Of a stretch of DNA of 49,351 nt, positions 3,703-18,365 are shown one piece after another (position 1 is the first letter of the stretch; each line of letters begins with the position of its first letter). The notes under the pieces are model-generated. The model did not search any database. It was not told the DNA's origin and worked only from the letters and a program-made list of their open reading frames with translations. This DNA comes from Patescibacteria group bacterium (GTDB lineage: Bacteria > Patescibacteriota > Minisyncoccia > Phycocordibacterales > JBAYGS01): the NCBI GenBank assembly GCA_038078755.1, contig JBBTSQ010000025.1:7099-56449 (forward strand). Direction: 5' to 3'. Made by a program: the position numbers and the translations under genes.

Positions 3703-3891
3703 TCAAAAGCACTGGCTGAAGAGATGCACAGCAAGCGCGCCCAAAAGCACGGTGGGTGGCAGTATGCCGAACACTACACAGATCACCTTGTGATCTCGCC
3801 GCTCACACTCACGCGTCTCGATCACCGCATACCACAGCCAGCCGAAGACACCGACAGTAAACACTACCCACCTCCACACATCGTAATTCAT
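3703..3891 (-). CDS. small two-TM hypothetical protein (62 aa)
   Basis: ATG ORF with two hydrophobic segments, flanked by terminators. Weak support. Confidence 0.35.
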   Translation of the reverse strand: MNYDVWRWVVFTVGVFGWLWYAVIETRECERRDHKVICVVFGILPPTVLLGALAVHLFSQCF

Positions 3892-3960
3892 ACAAAACCT
3901 TTCTCAAAGATGTTCTACTCTAATCAAAGCATACCCAACAAAATCACACAATCAAAAGAA

Positions 3961-3996
3961 AAAGCCCCGCCCTCGAGAGTACTCGGGGCGGGGCTT
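3961..3996 (-). terminator. GC-rich terminator hairpin after the 4004-4954 ORF
   Basis: AAAGCCCCGCCC...GGGGCGGGGCTT. Confidence 0.65.
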
Positions 3997-4003
3997 CGCG
4001 TGA

Positions 4004-4954
4004 TCATTTTTCGGCAATCTCCGACACTTCCCTCTTAAGCCAAAACTGCGTCAGCTCGGAAAGTTTTGCGATTCCTGCGAAAAGACTCAAACCCTGAATC
4101 GGCGAATCAACGTTGTGCGGGCTAAACTCAAATCCACATCGCCCGCCAGCTACCCGATCAAATGACCCGTCGATTCCAGTAGCGTTTCCCGGACAACTGA
4201 AATGAATCCCCCGGGCATCCAAACACTTGTGAAATGCGTACGGATCAGACGGCTTACCCATCATAGTGGCATAAGCGATCATCACCGCTTCCGACACTTC
4301 GCATATCAGCGCATCTTGTCGCGCCTGAGGCAAACTTTTGATGTAGTCCACCGCATCAGGACTGAGTACCCCAAAGACACCCGATCCTGATTGTCCCGGT
4401 TCGGCATTACACCGCACCGTGAGTGTCTGCCACTGAGTAGTCGGAAGATCAATTTCGGGAGGAAGATCCAGTATCCACAAGAGAATCACCAAACTCGATT
4501 GCAAAGCGTGAGCAGAGGTCCAATCACACTCTCTTTTCTTGCCAGAGCCATTACAGCTATAGCATTTGGCGCCAGACAATGGCTGTTTTTTCTGCCCATC
4601 GCAATACTGGCAAGCCTCGTGCGTATCAAACCAGATCACCGGCACCTTTGCCCAATATTCCACAAATGGGTCGCCTGATCTGCGGGGTTGTTTGACCAAT
4701 GCGCGATTGAAACCAAAGGTATCAGCAGAAAATGATCCGCAAAATTCGGAGTTGAGCAAGTCACCTCTCAGACCGTACATCTTCTCGAGATGCGCGACTA
4801 CCGGCGCAGTCGACGAGACATCTTCGAGCCCTGCCAGATACGCTTCGTGAATGCGAACGATGATCGTCGTATCCGAGCTTCGCCACCGCAGTTGATACCA
4901 ACACGCAATCGACTCATCCAAAAGCATCCGCGTCTTCCTCTGTGCAGAGTTCAT
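4004..4954 (-). CDS. orphan protein with DnaJ-type CxxCxGxG zinc-finger motifs (316 aa)
   Basis: Start re-chosen at the ATG giving MNSAQRK, because the longer ORF reads through a word tract. Contains CQYCDGQKK...CYSCNGSGKK. Locally GC-rich, with many shadow ORFs. Confidence 0.55.
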   Translation of the reverse strand: MNSAQRKTRMLLDESIACWYQLRWRSSDTTIIVRIHEAYLAGLEDVSSTAPVVAHLEKMYGLRGDLLNSEFCGSFSADTFGFNRALVKQPRRSGDPFVEYWAKVPVIWFDTHEACQYCDGQKKQPLSGAKCYSCNGSGKKRECDWTSAHALQSSLVILLWILDLPPEIDLPTTQWQTLTVRCNAEPGQSGSGVFGVLSPDAVDYIKSLPQARQDALICEVSEAVMIAYATMMGKPSDPYAFHKCLDARGIHFSCPGNATGIDGSFDRVAGGRCGFEFSPHNVDSPIQGLSLFAGIAKLSELTQFWLKREVSEIAEK

Positions 4955-5005
4955 TGTGTACCTTTCTTTGTAAAGTTCAAATTCTAGATACACTCTACTC
5001 CTTTT

Positions 5006-5135
5006 AAGAAAAACTAACAACAAACAACTCACCACCAACAATCAGAGTGAAAAGGATCGATTATTCACTTCAAATACTCGATTCTTTTCACTTTCAGATC
5101 CTGTTGTATGTTGTCAGTGGTAAGTTGTAAGTTTG
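5006..5135. repeat. inverted pair of A/C-only word tracts around a 15-bp hairpin
   Basis: Forward arm AAAAACTAACAACAAACAACTCACCACCAACAATCAGAG. Reverse arm TCAGATCCTGTTGTATGTTGTCAGTGGTAAGTTGTAAG. Central stem AGTGAAAAGGATCGA/TCGATTCTTTTCACT with one mismatch. Confidence 0.85.
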
Positions 5136-5137
5136 TC

Positions 5138-5755
5138 CTACAACCCATTAAACTCACTCATTGCTTTGTCGCGACCGTGCTCGACGAGGACAGAGAGGCC
5201 TTCAGCAACTTTCTTTGCAGACTTTTTAATCAGTTCTAATTCGGCTTTTTTGAATGGGTCGACAATAAAATCACCGATCAATTTTTCTCCGGACGGTTTT
5301 TTTAATTTGCCCGATGCAGTTGAAGGCGAAATCCCCATTCGTACCCGCACAAACGCTTCCGTGCCGATCGCTTTAATAATCGACTCGACGCCCTTGTGTC
5401 CACCAGAACTTTTATTAAAAGAAATTTTAAACTTACCAATTGGAATATCGAGGTCATCGTGAATCACCACCAGATTTTCTGCCACACCCCCTTTGAAAAC
5501 TTTAGACTTCGCCACTTTGACCAGAGACTTCACCGAAAGCCCCGACTTATTCATAAAAGTCTCGGGTTCAACAAGTGTTACTTTGTTTTTTGCCACACCC
5601 CCTTTCGAGACCGACGCATTTATTTTTTTATCCAACACAAAGTCATCTGCTGAAATAGATTTGGCAAATACACCCAGCACAATCCTGCCCGCGTTATGAC
5701 GAGTGAGCGCGTATTCCTCTCCGGGATTTCCGAGACCAACGATGATGTAGTGCAT
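5138..5755 (-). CDS. pth: peptidyl-tRNA hydrolase
   Basis: MHYIIVGLGNPGEEYALTRHNAG N-terminal signature. ORF-track residues 1-32 (5756-5851) are read-through of a stop-free word tract. Confidence 0.9.
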   Translation of the reverse strand: MHYIIVGLGNPGEEYALTRHNAGRIVLGVFAKSISADDFVLDKKINASVSKGGVAKNKVTLVEPETFMNKSGLSVKSLVKVAKSKVFKGGVAENLVVIHDDLDIPIGKFKISFNKSSGGHKGVESIIKAIGTEAFVRVRMGISPSTASGKLKKPSGEKLIGDFIVDPFKKAELELIKKSAKKVAEGLSVLVEHGRDKAMSEFNGL

Positions 5756-6911: not shown

Positions 6912-8144
6912 ATGAAAAAACAGAAAAAAACAATCACGCCAAAAGAATCAAACACTGCCTACAGCGACATCGACACGGCAGCCGAAGTGGCGGTCTACTA
7001 CGGCTTCACTCCGCAAAAAACGCCCACCATCAAAAAAGATGACATGGCGCAAGCAAAACACATTGAAAGCGCGGACGAAAAAAAGGCACTTCCTCTCGGC
7101 TGGGACACCTTAAGTCTCGAGGGACAATCAGCGCTCATCCGCGAATACGTCGATAACAATTGGCATAATTTACCGCAACCGCTCACCCACTATCACAAGG
7201 GGCCGTTTGCCATCGACGGCAAACCGGCAAAAAAAGAAAGTCGAGAGATGGAATGCTATCTTGAAATCATCGGCACGCACAAAAGCATCGCCGAAGCGAT
7301 TATTATCGAGACCGCCATCGCCATTTTGAAAGAAGAAGGTTATGACGATCTCCATCTTGAGATTAATAGTATCGGCGATCGAGAATCATTTTCTCGTTTT
7401 ACCAAAGAACTGACTGCCTACTATCGAAAGCATATCAATGACCTCCCCGCCGCGTGCAGACAAGCGATGAAATCGAGTGTCTTCAGTCTCTTGTCGTGCA
7501 GTGAACATGAGACGTGTAAAAAATTGGCGGTAGATGCACCGCAATCAATCAGCTTTCTCTCTGAAGCCAGCCGGCATCATTTTCAAGAAATTTTGGAGTA
7601 TTTAGAGACGCTCGATATTCCCTACACTATCCAAAATTTACTAGTCGGCAATCCGAGTTTTTCATCGGGGCCAGTATTTGAAATCAGAAATGATGGTTGT
7701 GCGCGAGGTAAAGGCGTCGCCCCGCTTGCGGTCGGCTGTCGATACGACGGTCTGGCCAAAAAGCTCGGCGCCAAAAAAGAAATTCTGGGCGCGTGCGCCG
7801 TGCTCCATTTCAAAAAGCCGACCGGTGAAAAAGCCAATCATAAAGTCAAAAAACCGGAAGTGTATTTCATCCAGCTTGGGTTTGAAGCGAAACTAAAAAG
7901 TCTCAAAGTGATCGAGGTACTCCGCCAAGCCAAGATCCCAGTGCATCAAGCGCTCTGTCGCGATCGCATGGCCACCCAAATCGCCATCGCCGAGAAATCA
8001 AAAGTGCCATTCCTCTTGATTATGGGACTGAAAGAAGCGATGGAAAACGCGGTCATCGTGCGCGACATGACCGACCGATCACAAAACACAATCAAAATTG
8101 AAGATGTGCCGGCGTATCTGAAGAAGTTGAAAGCGCAGAAGTAG
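6912..8144 (+). CDS. histidyl-tRNA synthetase family protein, divergent (HisRS/HisZ-like)
   Basis: HisRS-like order INSIGD...PVFE...GCRYDGL, plus a C-terminal anticodon-binding-like domain (VYFIQLG..FLLIMG). Several class II catalytic motifs look substituted. Confidence 0.65.
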   Translation: MKKQKKTITPKESNTAYSDIDTAAEVAVYYGFTPQKTPTIKKDDMAQAKHIESADEKKALPLGWDTLSLEGQSALIREYVDNNWHNLPQPLTHYHKGPFAIDGKPAKKESREMECYLEIIGTHKSIAEAIIIETAIAILKEEGYDDLHLEINSIGDRESFSRFTKELTAYYRKHINDLPAACRQAMKSSVFSLLSCSEHETCKKLAVDAPQSISFLSEASRHHFQEILEYLETLDIPYTIQNLLVGNPSFSSGPVFEIRNDGCARGKGVAPLAVGCRYDGLAKKLGAKKEILGACAVLHFKKPTGEKANHKVKKPEVYFIQLGFEAKLKSLKVIEVLRQAKIPVHQALCRDRMATQIAIAEKSKVPFLLIMGLKEAMENAVIVRDMTDRSQNTIKIEDVPAYLKKLKAQK

Positions 8145-8175
8145 GAAGTATAAAGTAAAAAGTATGAAGCACGAG

Positions 8176-8214
8176 AAAAGCCCCCGAAATTGCTCCGCAA
8201 TTTCGGGGGCTTTT
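8176..8214 (+). terminator. rho-independent terminator
   Basis: AAAAGCCCCCGAAATTGC-tcc-GCAATTTCGGGGGCTTTT. Confidence 0.8.
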
Positions 8215-8328
8215 CCCTTCAACGGCTCACTGCTTTAAAAGAATGCCCCAGCACCTTTGGCACAAAGGCGTTGGGGCATTCTTTTTTCTGAGCCTCTGTA
8301 GAGCCATAAAATCATCTTTTTAAATTAC

Positions 8329-8357
8329 TTGACTTTTTGTGTGACTTGGTATATACT
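8329..8357 (+). promoter_or_regulatory. promoter TTGACT-17-TATACT
   Basis: TTGACTttttgtgtgacttggtaTATACT upstream of the 8436 ORF. Confidence 0.55.
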
Positions 8358-8435
8358 ACACACCAGAAAGGTACCGAAGTGCGAATCATCGCCGTTGCCA
8401 AAAGCGCCTGCTTTTGGACTTCAGACTCTTGTTCT

Positions 8436-8789
8436 ATGAAAAACCTACACATCTTTTTCTGTTTTCTCTCGGTTCTACTGATAGGGATCAATCTCCTAAT
8501 GCTGATAGATACAGATGGCCGAATCTGGTTGGTGTTGAGCTTTATTCTAACTCTCGGATTCACTTTTGAACGCGATGAACCTGTCACAACGACACTTCTG
8601 AGCTTCTTCTGGATGATGACACTGGGTGCTGTTACAGCACGTAATTTTCAACACCCACTTGAAGTGAGCACTGGTACTTTCGTATTTGTATGTTTTGGAT
8701 TTGTGTTTATGTGCTTTTCGTTCATTCATGGTTTTCGCTCCCTGATTAATTCAACACCGAGGATCGGTGTGCAGGAATCAGCCAATTGA
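8436..8789 (+). CDS. small polytopic membrane protein (117 aa)
   Basis: Start re-chosen at the ATG giving MKNLHIFF. Three to four hydrophobic helices. Followed by a terminator. Confidence 0.45.
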   Translation: MKNLHIFFCFLSVLLIGINLLMLIDTDGRIWLVLSFILTLGFTFERDEPVTTTLLSFFWMMTLGAVTARNFQHPLEVSTGTFVFVCFGFVFMCFSFIHGFRSLINSTPRIGVQESAN

Positions 8790-8806
8790 CCACCCCTAGA
8801 CTCCCT

Positions 8807-8838
8807 CGCCGTCCGGCTTCCGGACGGCGTTTTCTTTT
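8807..8838 (+). terminator. rho-independent terminator
   Basis: CGCCGTCCG-gcttc-CGGACGGCG followed by TTTTCTTTT. Confidence 0.75.
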
Positions 8839-8904
8839 CCCCTCTTCCAACCTCCCTCCCTAAGCACGCAGGGCGGTTTGATTCCTCTTATCAACAGCGA
8901 GCGA

Positions 8905-9046
8905 GAATCACTTCTGGTGTATGTCGCGGAGTTTCGCCAGCATGGTCTGTCAAGAGATGTGTCTGCACATAATCTTGACAGTGACGAAACGAGCGTAGGA
9001 AAAGCCGGTGCTGGCCGGCTTTATCCGCGTACGCCAGAAGTGATTC
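8905..9046 (+). ncRNA. candidate structured RNA or MITE-like element (three-way junction, about 142 nt)
   Basis: 19-nt terminal arms GAATCACTTCTGGTGTATG / CGTACGCCAGAAGTGATTC whose two differences are G-U compatible only on the plus strand. Inner stems are CTGTCAAGA/TCTTGACAG, GTTTCG/CGAAAC and AAAGCCGG/CCGGCTTT. Confidence 0.4.
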
Positions 9047-9056
9047 GAGGGAGCAT

Positions 9057-9085
9057 TTGCATCAAACCACTCTGCGTGCTATACT
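9057..9085 (+). promoter_or_regulatory. promoter TTGCAT-17-TATACT for rpsU
   Basis: TTGCATcaaaccactctgcgtgcTATACT, 10 nt before the rpsU ATG. Confidence 0.6.
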
Positions 9086-9095
9086 CTCCCCCACT

Positions 9096-9344
9096 ATGGC
9101 TATCAACGTAGAAATCACCAAAAACGCATCAGAAACAGGACTGTCAGTCCTGCGCCGTTTTACCAAGCGCGTCCAAGGCTCGGGTATCATCCCGCGCGTA
9201 AGATCACTTCGCTACAATCAGCGCGTGCTCTCCCACTACAAAAATAAAATGAAAACGCTTGAAGGCATCAAGAACCGAGCAGAAAAAGCGGAGTTGATGA
9301 AGCAGGGCAAGCTCGTAGAAGAACCAAGAAAGCGCGGTCGTTAA
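9096..9344 (+). CDS. rpsU: 30S ribosomal protein S21
   Basis: 82-aa basic protein, MAINVEITKN..LRRFTKRV..; start set at the ATG at 9096. Confidence 0.85.
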   Translation: MAINVEITKNASETGLSVLRRFTKRVQGSGIIPRVRSLRYNQRVLSHYKNKMKTLEGIKNRAEKAELMKQGKLVEEPRKRGR

Positions 9345-9463
9345 AATAAGCAAAACAACATCATCTACTTCGTTGCTTCGCTCGTTTGCTCCTGCAACGT
9401 ATTTGTATACGTTTTAGTCGCAAAGCTCGCTCGCGCCTCGTATCTAAAATTGTTTTGCTTATT
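9345..9463. repeat. long intergenic hairpin with 14-bp perfect outer stem
   Basis: AATAAGCAAAACAA (9345-9358) pairs with TTGTTTTGCTTATT (9450-9463). Inner stem AACGTAT/ATACGTT. Confidence 0.75.
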
Positions 9464-9473
9464 TACACACCAC

Positions 9474-9869
9474 ATGACGAGTCCCGACAATTTTCACATA
9501 CACATCAAAACAAAAAGCAACCCGTCACCTGACCGGTTGCTTTTTGCTTCTATCAAAGAAGCGATCTTAGGGAAAGACTATGACCTTGCGGTCATTCTCA
9601 CAACGCCAAAAGAAACCCAAAGGCTCAATCGCGATTACCGACAGAAAGATTCCCCCACCGACATCTTGAGTTTTCCAATTAATTCATTCGAGGGTGAAAT
9701 CTACCTCGACATTGAAACCGCCAAAGTCGAGGCGCCAAAATTTGACCGTCCGATTGAAAACTTTTTGCCATTCTTATTTATCCACGGATGCCTCCATTTG
9801 AAAGGAATGGCACATGGTAGTACAATGGAGAAGATCGAGGCCAAATTTCGAAAAGAATTTGGCATCTAA
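9474..9869 (+). CDS. ybeY: rRNA maturation endoribonuclease YbeY
   Basis: HGCLHLKGMAHG zinc-binding H-x3-H-x5-H motif; 131 aa. Confidence 0.85.
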   Translation: MTSPDNFHIHIKTKSNPSPDRLLFASIKEAILGKDYDLAVILTTPKETQRLNRDYRQKDSPTDILSFPINSFEGEIYLDIETAKVEAPKFDRPIENFLPFLFIHGCLHLKGMAHGSTMEKIEAKFRKEFGI

Positions 9870-9874
9870 ATGAT

Positions 9875-9970
9875 CAATTAACAATTTCCAATTTTCAATC
9901 AATTTTCAATCACATAATTTAAATATTTCTTAGTTGATTGAAAATTTGATAATTGATAATTTGAAATTAC
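9875..9970. repeat. imperfect AT-rich inverted word tract (TTCCAATTTTCAAT class)
   Basis: Left arm CAATTAACAATTTCCAATTTTCAATCAATTTTCAATCAC. Right arm GTTGATTGAAAATTTGATAATTGATAATTTGAAATTAC. Confidence 0.75.
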
Positions 9971-9982
9971 TACCCCGTAGTC

Positions 9983-11161
9983 ATGGCACGCAACATCGCA
10001 GTCGGCATTGATATCGGTACCTACCAGATCAAGGTGGTCGTGGCAGAGCTCGGTAAAGAAAAGACCACTCCGCATATTATCGGAATGGGTTTTGCCGAGT
10101 CCAAAGGCTTGCGCCATGGCTATATTGTAAACGGCAGTGATGCGATAAAAAGTATCAAGCAGGCCGTCTCCCAAGCCGAGAAAATCGCTAAAGTGCCGAT
10201 CAAACGTGCTCACATTTCGGTCGGTGGTATTGGACTATCATCGATTACCTCAAACGGTGTTACCACCGTGACTCGCGCCGATCTCGAAATCACCGATCTC
10301 GATATCAAAAAAGCTATCGAAGTGAGTAAAAATGAAATTCCGCAATCTTTTTCACTCAATCGCCGAATCCTCCATACTATCCCGCTTGAATACAAAATTG
10401 ATGGCCAAAAAGTGTTTGGCAAACTGCAAGGAATGAAGGGGGCGAAGCTCGAAGTCAAAACACTATTCATCACTTCGCTTGAGCAACATTTGGAAGAGCT
10501 AATTTCCGTAGTGGAAGAAGCGGGAGTGGAAATCGAAGACGCTATTGCCGCGCCGATTGCATCAAGTCTCGTCACCCTTTCTAAACAACAAAAAACTGCT
10601 GGGTGTATATTGGCAAACATCGGCTCCGAGACGGTATCTATCGCTGTGTTTGAAAACAATATTCCAGCATCACTCGAAGTCTTCCCATTTGGATCGACCG
10701 ATATCACCAACGACATCGCCCTTGGCCTCAAAGTATCACTCGAAGAAGCCGAACGTCTAAAAGTGGGTGGTACCATCGACTCCAACCAGTCTCGCAAAAA
10801 ACTCGACGAGATTATCGTGGCGCGCTTGTCAGACATTTTCGAACTGATCGAAGCGCATCTGAAAAAAATCGGGCGCAACGGTCTTTTGCCTGCCGGCATC
10901 ATCATCACCGGTGGCGGATCAGGTATTGCCACCATCGAAGACTTTGCCAAAGCCTCGCTCAAACTCCCATCACGCATCGGCAATATCGCTTTTGGTCCAA
11001 GCTTGGGCGATCGCTTTAAAGACGCGACATGGTCGGTGGCATATGGTCTCTGCATCTTGGGACTTTCTGGAGAATCTGACGGGATGAAACATGGCGCTGG
11101 ATTACAAGGCAAAGAGGTTATTACAAATGTTGGCAGATGGTTTAAACAGTTTTTACCCTGA
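9983..11161 (+). CDS. ftsA: cell division protein FtsA
   Basis: Actin-like ATPase: VGIDIGTYQIKVVVAE phosphate-1 motif and IIITGGGSGI. Confidence 0.9.
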   Translation: MARNIAVGIDIGTYQIKVVVAELGKEKTTPHIIGMGFAESKGLRHGYIVNGSDAIKSIKQAVSQAEKIAKVPIKRAHISVGGIGLSSITSNGVTTVTRADLEITDLDIKKAIEVSKNEIPQSFSLNRRILHTIPLEYKIDGQKVFGKLQGMKGAKLEVKTLFITSLEQHLEELISVVEEAGVEIEDAIAAPIASSLVTLSKQQKTAGCILANIGSETVSIAVFENNIPASLEVFPFGSTDITNDIALGLKVSLEEAERLKVGGTIDSNQSRKKLDEIIVARLSDIFELIEAHLKKIGRNGLLPAGIIITGGGSGIATIEDFAKASLKLPSRIGNIAFGPSLGDRFKDATWSVAYGLCILGLSGESDGMKHGAGLQGKEVITNVGRWFKQFLP

Positions 11162-11204
11162 GTACAGGGAGAATTAAGAATCAAGAATTATGATTCATGA
11201 ATAA

Positions 11205-11235
11205 CTGCCCCGTCTAGCTTCGCTAGACGGGGCAG
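11205..11235. terminator. terminator hairpin after ftsA
   Basis: CTGCCCCGTCTAGC-ttc-GCTAGACGGGGCAG. Confidence 0.75.
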
Positions 11236-11254
11236 TTTGAATATTTTGCTAAAG

Positions 11255-11282
11255 AAAAATCCGCTCGAGCGCAAGGCTTGAG
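11255..11282 (-). terminator. terminator-like hairpin, direct repeat of 11899-11928
   Basis: AAAAATCCGCTCGAGCGCAAGGCTTGAG. Two further hairpins stack at about 11290-11330 and 11346-11380. Confidence 0.55.
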
Positions 11283-11390
11283 TATAAAGTATAGAGAATC
11301 CCCCGAAATCACAAAGCGATTTCGGGGGATTCTCTGTGTGTAATAAAAAAATCCATCGAATGATACACTCGATGGATTCTACGAAAACTA

Positions 11391-11837
11391 TCAATTGATT
11401 CGAGCTGGCCACATGTGAGCTGGTTTGTCTAAAAGCTCCGCAGGGATGTTCGGTAAAAGGAAATCATCATCAACCTCGGTAATCATACAGCGAGCAAGCC
11501 CCACTCCAACAGCATCACCAGAGTATTGACCAATCCACGTGTTACCGTGCTTCACAGTAAAAGAATACTTGATGATATCCTTACGTCTGTCGTAATGTTT
11601 CGTAAACGATACCTCGCGATCGCTCACAGAGATATCTTTGAGCACTGACTCACCACAGGTATCCAACATATATCCCCTGAGGTTGTTCCTCGATTGTCGT
11701 TGGTCGGAAAAAATTATTCCCGCAAACATGGTTTGAAACAAACCTTCATTGATGGTAACCACGGCACCCTCGATAGGCACACAAGCCAGTCCAAGATACT
11801 GCCGGTTTTGAAAGAACACACCTTGAATCAAGAACAT
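11391..11837 (-). CDS. orphan hypothetical protein (148 aa) inside the ftsA-ftsZ spacer
   Basis: ATG ORF antisense to the division genes, bracketed by near-identical 25-nt repeats. No motif recognised. Confidence 0.45.
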   Translation of the reverse strand: MFLIQGVFFQNRQYLGLACVPIEGAVVTINEGLFQTMFAGIIFSDQRQSRNNLRGYMLDTCGESVLKDISVSDREVSFTKHYDRRKDIIKYSFTVKHGNTWIGQYSGDAVGVGLARCMITEVDDDFLLPNIPAELLDKPAHMWPARIN

Positions 11838-11898
11838 AAATAAACCTTTCTTTTTGTATCCTTTCTAACAATACTCTCACCAAGACAAAAGTCAATAA

Positions 11899-11928
11899 AA
11901 AAATCCGCTCGAGCACAAGGCTGAGCGG
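11899..11928 (-). terminator. rho-independent terminator, direct repeat of 11255-11282
   Basis: The minus strand reads CCGCTCAGCCTTGTGCTCGAGCGGATTTTTTT. Confidence 0.6.
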
Positions 11929-11963
11929 AAAATGGAAACCTGTGGTTAGGAGGGTGGTGACCG

Positions 11964-12179
11964 TCATCCCCACTGACCATTATTGACAGCATAACTGTGA
12001 TTCACAGTACAATGGGAATTACTATCGTTCCTAAACCAGCACCCGCCGTGAATACAAACGACCGATGGCAACTCGTGTATAGATTTGTATTCCACACACT
12101 CTGGCGTGATTTCTAGGCCACGCGGGCTCCAACGTATAGTTACTACGTCTTCATAGCCTCCCACCTGATTTTGCGACAA
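11964..12179 (-). CDS. small Cys/His-containing hypothetical ORF (71 aa, TTG start)
   Basis: Only an ORF with a non-ATG start. Weak support. Confidence 0.25.
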   Translation of the reverse strand: MSQNQVGGYEDVVTIRWSPRGLEITPECVEYKSIHELPSVVCIHGGCWFRNDSNSHCTVNHSYAVNNGQWG

Positions 12180-12422
12180 CCTCCACAGGCATCCGCTACC
12201 AGTCTACAGATATCAGATAAAAAGTAAAGCCAAAGCATGAAACAAAACTAAGCAAAATCAAGGCTTTCCTTTTTAAACGCTGGTGGTATCATTGGAGAAA
12301 CAAGTTCTGCGTTATTGGGAAATAGCGTAGGCGGTCTCACGAAAAATCAGAAATGTTTTCGTGGTAGTTCTGTATCTGCGGAATATACTAGCCTCGACGA
12401 GAGTAATTTTTTCATAATTATC

Positions 12423-13616
12423 ATGCCACATATCACACCAGAAGTAGAAACATTTGCCCGCATCAAAGTGTTGGGCGTTGGCGGTTCGGGCAAGAACGCC
12501 TTGAATCATATGGTCAACTCCAAAGTGCGCGGAGTTGAATTCATCGCGGTCAATACTGATGCGCAAGACCTCCATAATTCTCTCGCCAAACGAAAGATTC
12601 ACATTGGTAAAAACTTGACCCGAGGACTCGGCACCGGTATGAATCCGGAGCTCGGCAAGCGAGCGGTTGAAGAGACCAAGGAAGAAATCCAAGAAGCGAT
12701 CAAGGGCGCGGATATGGTCTTTATCGCCGGAGGAATGGGTGGTGGTACCTGCACCGGTGCGGCGCCGGTGGTTGCCAAGACTGCCAAAGAGCTCGGGGCG
12801 CTGACTGTGGCAGTGGTCACCAAGCCGTTCTTTTTTGAAGGTGTGCAAAGAATGCGTCTCGCTGAAGCAGGATTGGAAGAGCTCCGAAAATCAGTCGACG
12901 CAATCATTGTTATTCCCAATGATCGCCTCCTCGCCTCAATTTCCAAAGATACCACCGCCAAAGCCGCCTTTGCCATGTGCGACGAAGTGCTCAAGCAAGC
13001 GGTAGAAGGCATTTCAGACTTGATCACCACTCCCGGTATCATCAATATCGACTTCGCTGATATTCGCGCCGTGATGGACAACGCCGGAAGCGCCTTGATG
13101 GGCATCGGCACCGCCTCTGGTGAAAAGCGCGCTGAAGAAGCCGCCAAAGCCGCTATCAATTCTCCCCTCTTGGACCTTTCAGTCAATGGCGCCAAAGGCG
13201 TGCTGTTCTCGATTGCCGGCGGAGATGATCTGACCATGTTTGAAATCCAAGAAGCGGCAAAAGTGATTACTGAATCAATCGACCCCGGAGCAAAAGTGAT
13301 TTTCGGTACCGTACGCGATGAGAAACTAAAGAAAAACGAAATTCGTGTAACAGTTATTGCTTCTGGTTTCCCAGAAAGTGTGATGCGTCGATCACTCTTT
13401 GGCGACAATGCTGACAAACAAGGCAAGATGTTTACCGTCGGTGCTACGGTGACCCCCGCTCCTGCCATAATAGAAAAGCCAGCGCCAAAAACAGAGCCAA
13501 CAAAGATGGCCGAGCTAGCAAAAAGTGTTGTTGACGATAAAAAATCTGCTCGCACTGACGACGATGATGATTGGGGCGCGGTACCGGCCTTTTTGAGACG
13601 ATCGAAGCTCAAGTAG
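12423..13616 (+). CDS. ftsZ: cell division GTPase FtsZ
   Basis: GVGGSGKNALNHM and GGMGGGTCTGAAPVVA tubulin signature, with the conserved C-terminal peptide DDDDDWGAVPAFLRR. Start set at the ATG giving MPHITPE. Confidence 0.95.
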   Translation: MPHITPEVETFARIKVLGVGGSGKNALNHMVNSKVRGVEFIAVNTDAQDLHNSLAKRKIHIGKNLTRGLGTGMNPELGKRAVEETKEEIQEAIKGADMVFIAGGMGGGTCTGAAPVVAKTAKELGALTVAVVTKPFFFEGVQRMRLAEAGLEELRKSVDAIIVIPNDRLLASISKDTTAKAAFAMCDEVLKQAVEGISDLITTPGIINIDFADIRAVMDNAGSALMGIGTASGEKRAEEAAKAAINSPLLDLSVNGAKGVLFSIAGGDDLTMFEIQEAAKVITESIDPGAKVIFGTVRDEKLKKNEIRVTVIASGFPESVMRRSLFGDNADKQGKMFTVGATVTPAPAIIEKPAPKTEPTKMAELAKSVVDDKKSARTDDDDDWGAVPAFLRRSKLK

Positions 13617-13659
13617 AAGCTAGATTCAAGAATTAAGATTCATGATTCATGAATAAGAC

Positions 13660-13890
13660 CTAAACCAGTGAGCCTTTAAACTAATTTTCACCAAAAAACG
13701 TTAAAAATCGCCTCGTCAAAAACCGTGTCAACATTTCCCAAACGGCGTTGCCATTAAGGCACAGAATGCCTGAACGGCTCACTGGTTTTGGCCTCAAAAG
13801 GAGTGAGCCGTTCAGTGCTTTTAAGCCTACATAGAGCCACGCCACAGGAAAAAGTGTAAAATATGTTGCAACAGAGCCATTTTTGACATC
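13660..13890. repeat. GAGCC/GGCTC modular hairpin repeat, copy B
   Basis: Carries only the right arm of the terminal hairpin (GAGCCTTTAAACTAATTTT), then the shared body with a 13-bp stem CTGAACGGCTCAC/GTGAGCCGTTCAG, ending ACAGAGCCATTTTTGAC. Confidence 0.75.
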
Positions 13891-13900
13891 TTCAATAGTC

Positions 13901-13933
13901 ATAAAAAATACCGACCATTTCTGGTCGGTATTT
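13901..13933 (-). terminator. rho-independent terminator of the 13944-14528 ORF
   Basis: AATACCGACCA-tttc-TGGTCGGTATT with a T-run on the minus strand. Confidence 0.7.
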
Positions 13934-13943
13934 GCGTAACGAT

Positions 13944-14528
13944 TCAAGTTTCGAGCTTGAGCGACAGGTTTCCTTGAAGAATTTTCTTCTCAAGTTCACC
14001 GAAAAAAATGGCGACCGATGAGTGGCCCATAAAAAACGCCCCTCGGTCATACATCATATGACCAAAACCATCACAAAACCGTCCGGCAATTTCATCTTCT
14101 GAAGGCGGGCACTTACACCTCTGCTGTGCAAACATAGTCCACAACGCACGCACATGAGCATTACTCCCCCACAAGATTGCCCCCACATCGGTCAAGAAGT
14201 CTTGGCCGAGCGTAATACGATCATGTGAATGGCGAACCCACACCACCCACAGAGGATTCTTTTCGTCAGGCGCTTGGAGTATGAGGTGGACCGACCACCA
14301 ATCATCAGCATGCCCCGCCATTGCCGAAAAATTACGGGCATCAAACTCAAAATGTTTGATGGTTGACTGCAGAGCTGGCACATGTCGAAACGTTCGGGCA
14401 TGATCCATGACAACGACACACCATGCAGGCAAGATTCTCTGCCAGTGAATGGGAATTCTGCCATACATACGCGTTACGAATCGCTCAACCTCATATCCAT
14501 CTTGAGTTTCAGTTGTGATAACCTTCAT
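13944..14528 (-). CDS. orphan hypothetical protein (194 aa)
   Basis: Start re-chosen at the ATG giving MKVITTETQDG. Trp/His-rich, no family recognised. Confidence 0.5.
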   Translation of the reverse strand: MKVITTETQDGYEVERFVTRMYGRIPIHWQRILPAWCVVVMDHARTFRHVPALQSTIKHFEFDARNFSAMAGHADDWWSVHLILQAPDEKNPLWVVWVRHSHDRITLGQDFLTDVGAILWGSNAHVRALWTMFAQQRCKCPPSEDEIAGRFCDGFGHMMYDRGAFFMGHSSVAIFFGELEKKILQGNLSLKLET

Positions 14529-15788: not shown

Positions 15789-16217
15789 ATGACACTACCT
15801 ACAATGCAGAAAAAAGAATATGTTGCGTTTATATTTGCCCACTTCGCGCTCTTTGTGGTGTTCGTGTGGTTTGGTTCACTGAAATTTTTTGACTTAAGTC
15901 CTGCCAACCCCCTCGTTGATGCCCTCCTCAAAGAAACCTTGCCGTTCATTTCTTTCAACACCTTCATTATGATTTTGGGTGGATGGGAGGTGCTGATCGG
16001 TGTTCTGTTTATCATCCCAAAGATGGAGAAAATAGCACTGATCCTTTTGATTCCGCATATGGTGGTGACCATTATGCCTCTGTTTCTTTTGCCTGATATT
16101 GCGTGGAAAGGATTTTTAACCCCAACCCTTGAGGGTCAGTACATTATTAAAAACATCGTTATCATCGCTCTCGCCGCCTCTATGTTTGCGGATTTGAGGA
16201 AGAAGCATTTGAAATAG
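15789..16217 (+). CDS. DoxX/YkgB-like (DUF417-like) membrane protein
   Basis: 142 aa with four TM helices. The FVWFGSLKFFDLSPANPLV pattern resembles that family from memory. Confidence 0.45.
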   Translation: MTLPTMQKKEYVAFIFAHFALFVVFVWFGSLKFFDLSPANPLVDALLKETLPFISFNTFIMILGGWEVLIGVLFIIPKMEKIALILLIPHMVVTIMPLFLLPDIAWKGFLTPTLEGQYIIKNIVIIALAASMFADLRKKHLK

Positions 16218-16288
16218 TCTTGGGAAAGAATCTTTATTCGATCCTAATTACATGGAAACACGTCCTCAATAAAAAGTTGAAGGGTTAT

Positions 16289-17167
16289 TTAAAATATGTG
16301 TTCATCCCTATATGGAATTTCAACCTCTTTTAAAATTCCACTATCCCAGTTATAGAAGTATATCTTAGCCTGATGGAGATTTTCTTCTTGGACTTTGAAC
16401 GCTTCTTCTTGAGTTATATTATCTCCCACTAAAATTAAAATTAATTGACTGACACCTAGCGGCGCAAGTTTTGTCTTCTTTCTAGCGATTATAAATCTTA
16501 TGGCCTCATAATTTTTTGAGGATATATACTTTATCTCTATTGCCGTTGGTTTCTTACTATTTTTTAAATATACCACCCCATCGACAATAACACTCTTTTC
16601 ATGATTAGTTATTTTAACTTGAGATTTATATCTATCTGCATATCTGTCAATCAAATTAGTTTGTACCACTTCTTCTATTCGATATATCTTTTGGTATCTC
16701 TTAATAACCTCCTCTTTTGTGGACTTAGGAACAACTTTGTGAACTCCAGTTTCTACATTCAAAGGCTTATCTTTTGTCACCAAACCCTCAATGACTTTAT
16801 CATCCTCCTTGGTCTCCTTTATTCTTTGTTGTTTTATCTCAGATTCAGTGGCACCCTTTATTTTTACTGGCTCACCTTTTACACCACCAGGACCAACCTC
16901 CGTCATTCTATTTCTAATAAAATGATCTATCGCCTCGTGATGTTTTTGAAGTAAAACTAAGCAAATAATGAGAATAGAAGCCGGCCACGATACTAGAACT
17001 AATTTTGTATAATCATTTATTACTAAAAGAAGTTCTGAAATCCTGATTCTCCCACTAAACAGATCAACCATTATCGAGGTGAGTATAAACCAAAAAAAGA
17101 AAGTAAAAATAGCACAAAATGTTTGTTTAATTATTTCTTTAGAAGATTCTGTATTATCTTTTTCCAT
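16289..17167 (-). CDS. membrane-anchored protein with C-terminal PD-(D/E)XK-like nuclease motif (292 aa)
   Basis: Two N-terminal TM helices. The C-terminal segment IEEVV...VIVDGVVYLKNSKKPTAIEIKY gives D-x14-E-x-K. The ORF starts 16 nt after the tRNA-Glu 3' end. Confidence 0.5.
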   Translation of the reverse strand: MEKDNTESSKEIIKQTFCAIFTFFFWFILTSIMVDLFSGRIRISELLLVINDYTKLVLVSWPASILIICLVLLQKHHEAIDHFIRNRMTEVGPGGVKGEPVKIKGATESEIKQQRIKETKEDDKVIEGLVTKDKPLNVETGVHKVVPKSTKEEVIKRYQKIYRIEEVVQTNLIDRYADRYKSQVKITNHEKSVIVDGVVYLKNSKKPTAIEIKYISSKNYEAIRFIIARKKTKLAPLGVSQLILILVGDNITQEEAFKVQEENLHQAKIYFYNWDSGILKEVEIPYRDEHIF

Positions 17168-17183
17168 AAATACTTAAAACCTG

Positions 17184-17255
17184 TGACCCTACGGGGAATC
17201 GAACCCCGATTACAGCCTTGAAAAGGCCGTGTCCTAACCGTTAGACGATAGGGCC
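17184..17255 (-). tRNA. tRNA-Glu (anticodon UUC)
   Basis: GGCCCTATCGTCTAACGGTTAGGACACGGCCTTTTCAAGGCTGTAATCGGGGTTCGATTCCCCGTAGGGTCA. Cloverleaf with loop CTTTCAA; no encoded CCA. Confidence 0.85.
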
Positions 17256-17351
17256 ATACCGAAATGATACTATAGCATTTTTATTATTTATAGGGAAGTG
17301 AAATATGCTTGAGCGGTTGAATAATATAGTGTAATATATACCCAAAGATTC

Positions 17352-18365
17352 ATGTTATCTACTTACATACAATCAAATAAAGATTCTAGTGATTTCTTGA
17401 TAAAAGCCAAACTAGCCACCGGCTCATGGCAAATATTATCCAAAATAACAGGGGTGTCCCCAAGAACTCTTCGTAATTGGTACTTATGCCAATCTTCCAT
17501 ACCCCTCGATAGTCTCAAACTACTAAGTAACCACTTGGGAGTGTCTCTGCCCAAATATAAAGCAATCGACATATTGAGACTAAAAAGAAACGCTGCAAAG
17601 AGAGGCGGCCTAAGACGCATAGCACTTTATGGTAACCCCGGGACAATCACAGGGAGGATAAAAGGTGCATTAAGATCAATAAGGACGCAATCGAAAAATC
17701 CCTATTCACCTTTTATTCAGAAAAAAATCAGCATACCCAAACGTTCATCCCAATTAGCTGAATTTGTTGGAATTTTATTAGGAGATGGTCATGTTGGTAA
17801 ACGACAAATTATAATTTCAATAGGGGCGGACGAATATGGCTATACAAAGTATATTTCTAATTTAAGCTTCAAATTATTTCAGTACCGCCCATCGATAAAA
17901 AAGAAAAACGGAGTAGAGGTGTACACACTAGTCTTTTCTCGTACAGCCCTGGTGACATATATAAAAAAGATCGGACTAACTGATTCACACAAAGTAAAAT
18001 CGCAAAGTAATACTCCCCTTTGGATTCGAAATAACAAGAATTATTCCAAGGCGTGTGTCCGAGGATTATTTGACACTGATGGCTCGTTTTTTATTGATAG
18101 ACACTTAATAAAAAATTCGCTATATTACAATGCGGGTATTGCGTTCACTAATTACTCACTGCCACTACTTAAATTTTTCTACTTTACACTGGTCGCTCGA
18201 GGATTCCATCCAACAGTATCGAGTGGTAAAAATGTGTTTCTGCGACGAGATAACGAAATACGCTACTTTTTCAAAGACATTGGGAGTAATAACCCTAAAC
18301 ATTTAAGAAAATTTAGTGAATTTGTAAACAAATATCCCAAAGGAAAGGTACCGAAGAGGTCATAA
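17352..18365 (+). CDS. double-motif LAGLIDADG homing endonuclease with N-terminal HTH
   Basis: LAEFVGILLGDGHV and CVRGLFDTDGSF motifs. HTH-like ILSKITGVSPRTLRNWY. The last 24 nt overlap tRNA-Ser. Confidence 0.85.
   Translation: MLSTYIQSNKDSSDFLIKAKLATGSWQILSKITGVSPRTLRNWYLCQSSIPLDSLKLLSNHLGVSLPKYKAIDILRLKRNAAKRGGLRRIALYGNPGTITGRIKGALRSIRTQSKNPYSPFIQKKISIPKRSSQLAEFVGILLGDGHVGKRQIIISIGADEYGYTKYISNLSFKLFQYRPSIKKKNGVEVYTLVFSRTALVTYIKKIGLTDSHKVKSQSNTPLWIRNNKNYSKACVRGLFDTDGSFFIDRHLIKNSLYYNAGIAFTNYSLPLLKFFYFTLVARGFHPTVSSGKNVFLRRDNEIRYFFKDIGSNNPKHLRKFSEFVNKYPKGKVPKRS

Follow-up and report, generated by a model that had tools for sequence, protein, structure and literature searches.

What is the AT-rich gene that begins a few bases behind a tRNA-Glu gene in an ultra-small bacterium, and how did it come to lie there? 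The gene is found in the window analysed here, a stretch of 49,351 nucleotides (contig JBBTSQ010000025.1 of assembly GCA_038078755.1, positions 7,099 to 56,449) from an ultra-small bacterium of the candidate phyla radiation (CPR)/Parcubacteria type, whose 791,691-base (792-kb) assembly consists of 46 contigs with a guanine-plus-cytosine (GC) content of 45.5%. It is an open reading frame (ORF) for 292 amino acids with an ATG start on the minus strand (16289..17167, stop codon 16289-16291), the strand of all its features given below, and the product is predicted to be a membrane-anchored protein with a PD-(D/E)XK fold. An earlier, sequence-only reading had proposed a membrane-bound nuclease of possible Shedu kinship, carried together with a LAGLIDADG gene on a horizontally acquired island. 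Our analysis favours a functional, horizontally mobile accessory gene for a membrane-tethered PD-(D/E)XK nuclease that most likely serves as a single-gene defence, a reading to which we assign a probability of roughly 0.5.

The restriction-endonuclease fold is predicted for residues 151-292 (16292..16717), from an AlphaFold2 (AF2) model of the domain and Foldseek comparison. A full-length model made from a 13-sequence alignment (predicted local distance difference test score, pLDDT, of 70) contains a helical hairpin formed by residues 3-37 and 43-88 and a C-terminal domain with the order H-E-E-E-H-E-H-E. A model of residues 147-292 alone, based on 11 sequences from the fetched loci, reached a pLDDT of 88.4 and a predicted TM-score (pTM) of 0.84, and its elements in domain numbering (H6-33, E34-41, E46-53, E62-69, H75-91 and E95-102) form an alpha-beta-beta-beta-alpha-beta arrangement. 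The leading Foldseek matches in the PDB were all PD-(D/E)XK nucleases, the best being Can2 (8q3z; E 3e-4, query TM-score (TMq) 0.47) and AF1548 (1y88; TMq 0.51), followed by PspGI, PaqCI, Nt.BspD6I, VC1899, NucS/EndoMS and the R2 endonuclease domain. Among the viral structures of BFVD most top-ranked matches were unnamed; the named ones included a restriction endonuclease, Cas4 and endodeoxyribonuclease I. The restriction-endonuclease-like domain guessed from the sequence is thus supported by the predicted fold.

The active site points the same way. In the window protein the motif comprises IEEVV (E165), VDG (D196) and, with 14 residues in between, E211-I-K213, which is the D-x14-E-x-K spacing noticed in the sequence-only reading; the putative catalytic codons lie at 16673-16675 (E165), 16580-16582 (D196), 16535-16537 (E211) and 16529-16531 (K213). 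The C-terminal domains of 78 family proteins, which correspond to 78 clusters at 50% identity, were aligned: D196 was kept in all 78, E211 in 77 and E165 in 73, while position 213 was Lys in 62 and Arg in 16. Lys or Arg occupied position 185 (K185 in the window protein) in 76 of the proteins, and Asp or Glu position 249 in 71. Conservation in the family is highest at the D/E/K residues. Fold and catalytic residues together support membership in the PD-(D/E)XK superfamily, with the Arg variants as a caveat, and since a near-invariant catalytic motif is found in a conserved gene, the nuclease gene is predicted to be probably intact and functional.

The family is an unannotated one of predicted restriction-fold nucleases, absent from the sequence libraries that were searched. 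A word-indexed search returned 13 full-length relatives, all metagenomic, all of about 290 amino acids and 40-72% identical, and a HMMER search of 1.84 billion representatives yielded the 78 clusters. The window protein gave no family match in Pfam, NCBIfam or PADLOC, and neither phmmer nor a 44-sequence profile found a meaningful sequence match in the PDB. When 44 family members were compared with Pfam by hmmscan (E<=1) only scattered chance matches appeared; isolated weak matches in single members were to HSDR_N_2, PDDEXK_14, YqaJ and Tox-REase-2. An assignment to NERD or another membrane-associated PD-(D/E)XK family of Pfam found no support in the same scan. An identity as a Can2/Card1-type CARF nuclease was likewise rejected, as the N-terminus consists of two transmembrane helices and a linker and no CARF domain was detected in Pfam or PADLOC.

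The searches also bear on the suggested kinship with Shedu, which is defined by the DUF4263 domain and consists of a single accessory gene that can sit in defence islands and whose product joins a C-terminal nuclease to an N-terminal module that varies (bioRxiv 10.1101/2023.08.10.552793). A divergent Shedu (SduA, DUF4263) with a transmembrane sensor domain would follow the same logic. However, hmmscan of the window protein and the 44 members found neither PF14082 (E<=1) nor the PADLOC Shedu model, no Shedu chain is within the top 50 Foldseek matches, and the Shedu survey (bioRxiv 10.1101/2023.08.10.552793) makes no mention of membrane anchors. The suggestion is accordingly dropped, a Shedu identity being very improbable.

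How the domain is placed in the cell is indicated by the N-terminal part of the protein. Two transmembrane helices had been proposed from the sequence, and hydropathy agrees. Helix 1 (residues 17-37, 17057..17119) has a Kyte-Doolittle 19-residue peak of 2.14 (residues 16-34) and is helical in the AF2 model; helix 2 (residues 56-73, 16949..17002) peaks at 2.40 (residues 56-74), and with its SWPAxILI core is kept in 39 type-A anchors, type A being the anchor of this gene. The following juxtamembrane motif KHHEAIDHFIRNRMTEVGPGGVKG (residues 75-98, 16874..16945) is basic, highly conserved and predicted to be cytoplasmic, with I80, F83, I84, R87, M88, G92, G95 and K97 invariant in alignment A1. The linker behind it (residues 99-150, 16718..16873) is charged, poorly conserved and variable in the alignment, and is mostly disordered in the model, in which pLDDT over residues 91-150 is 28-63 per 10-residue block and falls below 50 at residues 87-101 and 129-149. 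Across the 39 type-A anchors the mean number of Lys plus Arg residues is 2.7 before helix 1, 1.0 in the loop and 4.05 after helix 2, and the family members with a single transmembrane helix lack helix 1, which fits the same orientation. Because of this pattern, both termini, and hence the nuclease domain, would face the cytoplasm by the positive-inside rule.

The tether is shared far more widely than any one anchor. The nuclease domain was found on three unrelated N-terminal modules with two or three transmembrane helices: type A (DxYxKLILSSWPAxILI...HHEAIDxFIxNRMTEVGPGGVKG), a second type (QKIIGGLSVF...GGLIIASEDFMKFLAA) and a third (MNFSNKFK...FPIISEISIFG); nearly all full-length family members carry a membrane tether. 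Conversely, about 15 clusters have the type-A anchor, including the juxtamembrane motif, on a different C-terminal domain with weak winged-helix (HTH_45) matches. As one domain occurs on several anchors and one anchor with two domains, the tether is the constant element, and anchor and effector are exchangeable modules. The winged-helix sister proteins (P0038, P0043, P0045, P0046, P0053, P0056, P0057, P0062, P0064, P0066, P0073, P0075, P0080, P0087 and P0089) have a C-terminal domain of about 110 amino acids and make up another unannotated family, whose members are putative DNA-binding proteins on a membrane tether. P0053 is encoded on a contig of only 1.25 kb that has no tRNA.

The sister proteins raise the question of whether the window protein cuts DNA at all. 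It could be a membrane-tethered nucleic-acid binder that holds or senses DNA at the membrane, or a cleaver of RNA, possibly tRNA, for which the link to tRNA-Glu would be functional. Besides the winged-helix-like domain on the same anchor, the Arg at position 213 in 16 of the 78 clusters, the presence of RNA-cutting arenavirus cap-snatching endonucleases among the structural neighbours and the conserved adjacency to tRNA-Glu would agree with such a role. Yet the acidic triad and the basic residue are almost invariant, which argues for catalysis, and the protein is tied to tRNA-Glu by gene order only, for which promoter sharing is a simpler account where spacers are short. We consider this alternative improbable and take DNA to be the likely substrate of the nuclease.

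The anchor also permits a nutritional reading, in which the domain points outward as a surface-exposed nuclease that scavenges or takes up DNA, degrading environmental or host DNA for salvage or transformation in the manner of mycoplasma membrane nucleases or of EndA/NucA in competent Gram-positives. Symbionts without nucleotide synthesis would need such an enzyme. An anchor is present whichever its type, the genome is a CPR-type one of 792 kb, PMC12115388 describes membrane nucleases that serve precursor acquisition in other reduced bacteria, and the charge bias of the window protein taken alone is weak. Family-wide Lys plus Arg counts nonetheless favour a cytoplasmic C-terminus, the same anchor bears winged-helix domains in the sister proteins, and none of the loci examined links the gene to competence genes. 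Moreover, a search of 200 related genomes from the order, one of them of the same genus, did not find the gene, which does not suit a core nutritional function. Scavenging is therefore unlikely, and a cytoplasmic nuclease remains the preferred reading.

The nuclease gene was probably not inherited with the rest of this genome. In 500-nt windows across 16001-18000 the GC content is 33.6-38.0%, compared with about 42-53% in the rest of the window, and over 16218-18341, which had been judged AT-rich by eye, it is 35.1%, well below the genome mean. At 32.4% GC, the nuclease gene itself ranks among the lowest 0.1% of all 879-nt windows of the genome. Its GC content at third codon positions (GC3) is 0.27 against 0.469 +/- 0.073, the fifth lowest among 644 long ORFs of the genome, and at first and second positions (GC12) 0.35 against 0.454 +/- 0.041 for the genome's ORFs. 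Since synonymous positions deviate too, the low GC is not merely an effect of a Lys/Ile/Glu-rich protein, and by windowed GC and codon usage, the outlier test put forward with the sequence-only reading, the gene is a strong compositional outlier. Its homologs all have 28-35% GC, below their flanks (33-54%) in all loci but one; in the distant relatives designated type B, the gene is below its flanks in two of three loci.

Distribution agrees with composition. When the family profile was run against 200 further genomes of the same order, G121 (same genus) and G003 (same family) among them, the gene was not found, and the profile found no copy in GTDB contigs either. In the metagenomic locus L001 the nuclease is 64% identical to that of the window, TsaD 48% and ValS 43%; in L003 the values are 71% for the nuclease and 51% for TsaD, ValS not being on the contig. 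By contrast, G121 and G003 share TsaD at 77% and 52% and ValS at 89-92% and 63%, respectively, and lack a detectable nuclease gene. Because the nuclease is better conserved than TsaD and ValS in distant hosts and missing from closer ones, these comparisons indicate a horizontally acquired accessory gene. No transfer vehicle was identified, as IMG/VR, INPHARED phages and PLSDB plasmids contain no relatives. In L001 tRNA-Val(GAC), tRNA-Glu, the nuclease gene, tRNA-Phe, ValS and TsaD lie within 7 kb (7187-14124), and this tRNA-rich region differs from the window in order and orientation, implying local rearrangement.

Its position behind tRNA-Glu is what the gene has in common with several homologs. 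The tRNA-Glu(UUC) of the window (17183..17255; ARAGORN; Rfam RF00005, 61.7 bits; CCA not encoded) is the only UUC isoacceptor gene of the genome and therefore a housekeeping tRNA, not cargo. The spacer to the ORF is 15 nt (17168..17182), without a terminator and too short for a promoter of its own; the start codon begins at the 16th base after the tRNA end, as had been read before. Upstream sequence was available for nine distinct type-A loci (the window, L001/L002, L003, L004/L005, L021, L022, L023, L024 and L031). A same-strand tRNA lies directly upstream in five of them, in four of which it was identified as tRNA-Glu: with the anticodon UUC in the window and in L001/L002 (spacer 12 nt), and with CUC in L004/L005 (26 nt) and L021 (137 nt). 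In the fifth, L023, only the 3' part of the tRNA is on the contig, its isotype unconfirmed, about 29 nt from the upstream in-frame ATG. No tRNA-Glu lies upstream of the nuclease gene in L022, L024 (116 nt available) or L031, and the type-B loci show no linkage to tRNA-Glu. A stretch upstream of the gene in L003, ending in GGGGTCACCA, was considered as a tRNA and rejected, being recognised by neither ARAGORN nor Rfam.

Since a promoter does not fit into spacers of 12-30 nt, co-transcription with the tRNA is the simplest reading. A putative extended -10 element of tRNA-Glu, TGcTATAGT, lies 13 nt upstream of the tRNA 5' end (17269..17277, minus strand); it was read directly from the sequence and, lacking a -35 match, was not called by the consensus promoter scan. 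In L001 the corresponding position is occupied by TTGATT-N17-TAGAAT. No terminator-like hairpin was found downstream of the nuclease gene in the window. In the spacer that separates the tRNA from the nuclease gene, L023 has a perfect 18-nt palindrome (about 34-51), ATTCGTGCTAGCACGAAT, of which L004 has an imperfect version in the same interval (about 77-98); it may be a processing or attenuation hairpin.

The sequence behind tRNA-Glu differs among relatives. G121 (contig L018) keeps the trxB-DUF417 frame, with another AT-rich block of two ORFs after tRNA-Glu, and in G003 ArsR-like and RadC genes follow the tRNA. This makes the 3' flank of tRNA-Glu a variable slot. The G121 cargo (L018, 6064-7396) has 30-35% GC and encodes a 188-aa protein with RKLRNRIH (Rx6H, HEPN-like) and a 215-aa protein, neither with a significant Pfam or PADLOC match. 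As in tRNA islands, then, composition at the window locus is deviant and content varies among close relatives. A classic tRNA-integrated genomic island was rejected, as an integrase and a direct repeat at a far boundary are both missing: there is no recombinase between tRNA-Glu and DUF417 in the window, and no second copy of the tRNA-Glu end was found with up to three mismatches (<=3) allowed. A 16-nt inverted repeat (16227-16242 / 17372-17387, 15 of 16 positions complementary) brackets the nuclease gene and tRNA-Glu; it is taken as chance because L001, L003 and L021 have no counterpart.

Mobile elements were seen at other tRNA genes. In the host's own genome, contig C41 contains a 582-aa large serine recombinase ORF (about 3781-5529, complement) that ends some 35 nt from the 3' end of tRNA-Glu(CUC) (5489-5563), which suggests an integrated element at that tRNA. 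In G121 (L018, 1761-5589 and 5568-5657) a 511-aa serine recombinase overlaps the end of tRNA-Ser(CGA) and is followed by a LexA-like repressor and other phage-like ORFs; the region is probably a prophage or integrative element. The tRNA flanks of these genomes are thus insertion hot spots.

Such a slot could be maintained by the gene itself, if the nuclease or a partner in trans promoted insertion of the cassette behind the 3' end of tRNA-Glu, or its retention there, much like a free-standing homing endonuclease or an addiction gene. An element of this selfish, site-specific kind would account for a position that is conserved across unrelated genomes. In keeping with it are the transfer signature, the recurrence behind both tRNA-Glu(UUC) and tRNA-Glu(CUC) with differing outer neighbours, the hot spots and the 582-aa recombinase beside tRNA-Glu(CUC). 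A membrane anchor, however, is ill-suited to a homing enzyme that must search the chromosome, and three type-A loci as well as the type-B loci have no tRNA-Glu. Terminal repeats, a displaced tRNA end and a pair of empty and filled sites were looked for and not found. We hold a selfish element to be quite unlikely, and prefer a transferred accessory gene that serves its host.

The neighbouring LAGLIDADG gene had been assigned to the same island. It is a helix-turn-helix (HTH)-LAGLIDADG ORF on the plus strand (17352-18365), between tRNA-Glu and tRNA-Ser. An ortholog (L019, 2491-3699, minus strand; 41% identical, E 1e-86) occupies the same tRNA-Ser/tRNA-Glu spacer in G003, which belongs to another genus and is without the nuclease gene, so the histories of the two genes are separate. 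In G121 the two tRNA genes are 78 nt apart and the LAGLIDADG ORF is absent. The LAGLIDADG gene appears to be an older, conserved resident and not the product of a recent homing event. Of the island first proposed, horizontal acquisition into a variable tRNA flank is upheld by the transfer signature, and the idea of one island that carries both genes is not supported.

A defence role is plausible because the gene is AT-rich, patchily distributed and transferred, sits in a hot spot and has CBASS or terminase neighbours in some loci. In L022, a metagenome contig probably from a relative of the host's group, a complete short operon of the cyclic oligonucleotide-based antiphage signalling system (CBASS; 3-2519) lies directly upstream of the nuclease homolog, with an HNH-SAVED effector (6e-72), a cyclase/CD-NTase (1.5e-66) and an E2-like protein (7e-23). 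In L003 a weak terminase match and a ParB-methylase gene adjoin the homolog. The nuclease is not itself a CBASS effector: no cyclase lies near the gene in the window and the protein has no nucleotide-sensing domain, SAVED included, and in L022 the adjacent operon already has its HNH-SAVED effector.

Several observations weigh against a defence nuclease. A recognised defence system stands beside only one of the nine type-A loci, and type-B relatives sit among ordinary metabolic genes. PADLOC, proposed earlier as a check, matched the protein to none of its defence models, no similarity was seen among the ORFs that follow the homologs in eight loci, so that there is no conserved partner, and the phage and plasmid collections, as noted, hold no relatives. 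For a nuclease that could poison its own cell, a strong tRNA promoter is also a strange choice. As to the enzyme, structural similarity is distant (TM about 0.5, 11-16% identity), Arg in place of K213 in 16 of the 78 clusters is unusual for a canonical catalytic lysine, and charge counts are the sole basis of the predicted topology.

If the preferred reading is correct, transcription would start at the tRNA-Glu(UUC) promoter and read through into the nuclease gene, and processing of the tRNA 3' end would then free an mRNA with a very short leader. A hairpin of two transmembrane helices would anchor the protein in the cytoplasmic membrane, followed by the basic juxtamembrane helix, a flexible linker of about 50 residues and the C-terminal domain with its predicted metal-binding and catalytic set E165 / D196 / E211-x-K213. 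The protein would most likely serve as an innate single-gene barrier, cutting phage DNA and other foreign DNA as it arrives on the inner side of the membrane, or as an abortive-infection nuclease that is kept at the membrane until triggered.

Should the predicted activity be confirmed, about 78 clusters at 50% identity would make up an unannotated nuclease family with at least three independently recruited anchors. The recurrent tethering suggests that the location of the nuclease, rather than the sequence it recognises, helps to tell foreign DNA from the cell's own. Little is known of the defences of CPR/Patescibacteria, to which the gene would add a candidate immune module made up of one gene. 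The recurrent coupling to tRNA-Glu offers a testable case in which an accessory gene makes use of the promoter of a tRNA, and the nuclease, which diverges less between hosts than ValS and TsaD do, is a mark of active gene flow among these ultra-small bacteria. A bolder proposal, which we consider rather unlikely, is that CPR bacteria capture promoter-less single-gene cassettes site-specifically at tRNA-Glu 3' flanks, express them as tRNA-mRNA co-transcripts and spread them between distantly related hosts without a recombinase in cis. Promoters of tRNA genes would then serve defence cargo in an integron-like way, and the nuclease, by degrading DNA where it enters through the membrane, would stand for a defence principle not described in the libraries searched.

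Compared with known systems, the predicted domain shares with the PD-(D/E)XK superfamily (Steczkiewicz et al. 2012, PMC3424549) the alpha-beta-beta-beta-alpha-beta core and the placement of Glu in helix 1, Asp in strand 2 and E-x-K in strand 3. It differs in that no member family is recognisable by sequence, even with the 44-sequence profile, in having Arg for Lys in about one-fifth of clusters and, in full-length members, in being carried on an anchor of two or three transmembrane helices. Its best structural matches are the nuclease domains of Can2/Card1/Cdn1 (VC1899/DUF1887-type) and archaeal AF1548 (8q3z, 6xl1, 9u49, 1xmx and 1y88; Foldseek probability 0.93-1.00; TMq 0.47-0.51 for Can2 and AF1548, 0.40-0.42 for Cdn1 and VC1899), yet identity is 11-16%, with no match at the level of sequence, and the window protein has a membrane anchor at its N-terminus and neither a CARF domain nor another cyclic-nucleotide sensor. 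Shedu, whose anti-phage nucleases assemble as homotetramers through the nuclease domain, resembles it in being an accessory single gene that couples a C-terminal PD-(D/E)XK nuclease to an N-terminus of variable kind, although DUF4263 is undetected in the window protein. Like tRNA-flank islands, the locus has deviant, strain-variable cargo at a tRNA 3' flank, but it is a single 0.97-kb gene without an integrase or a repeat of the tRNA end. Finally, the thrU-tyrU-glyT-thrT-tufB operon of Escherichia coli is a tRNA operon that ends in a protein gene; in the window, the probable co-transcribed partner of the tRNA is cargo rather than a housekeeping gene.

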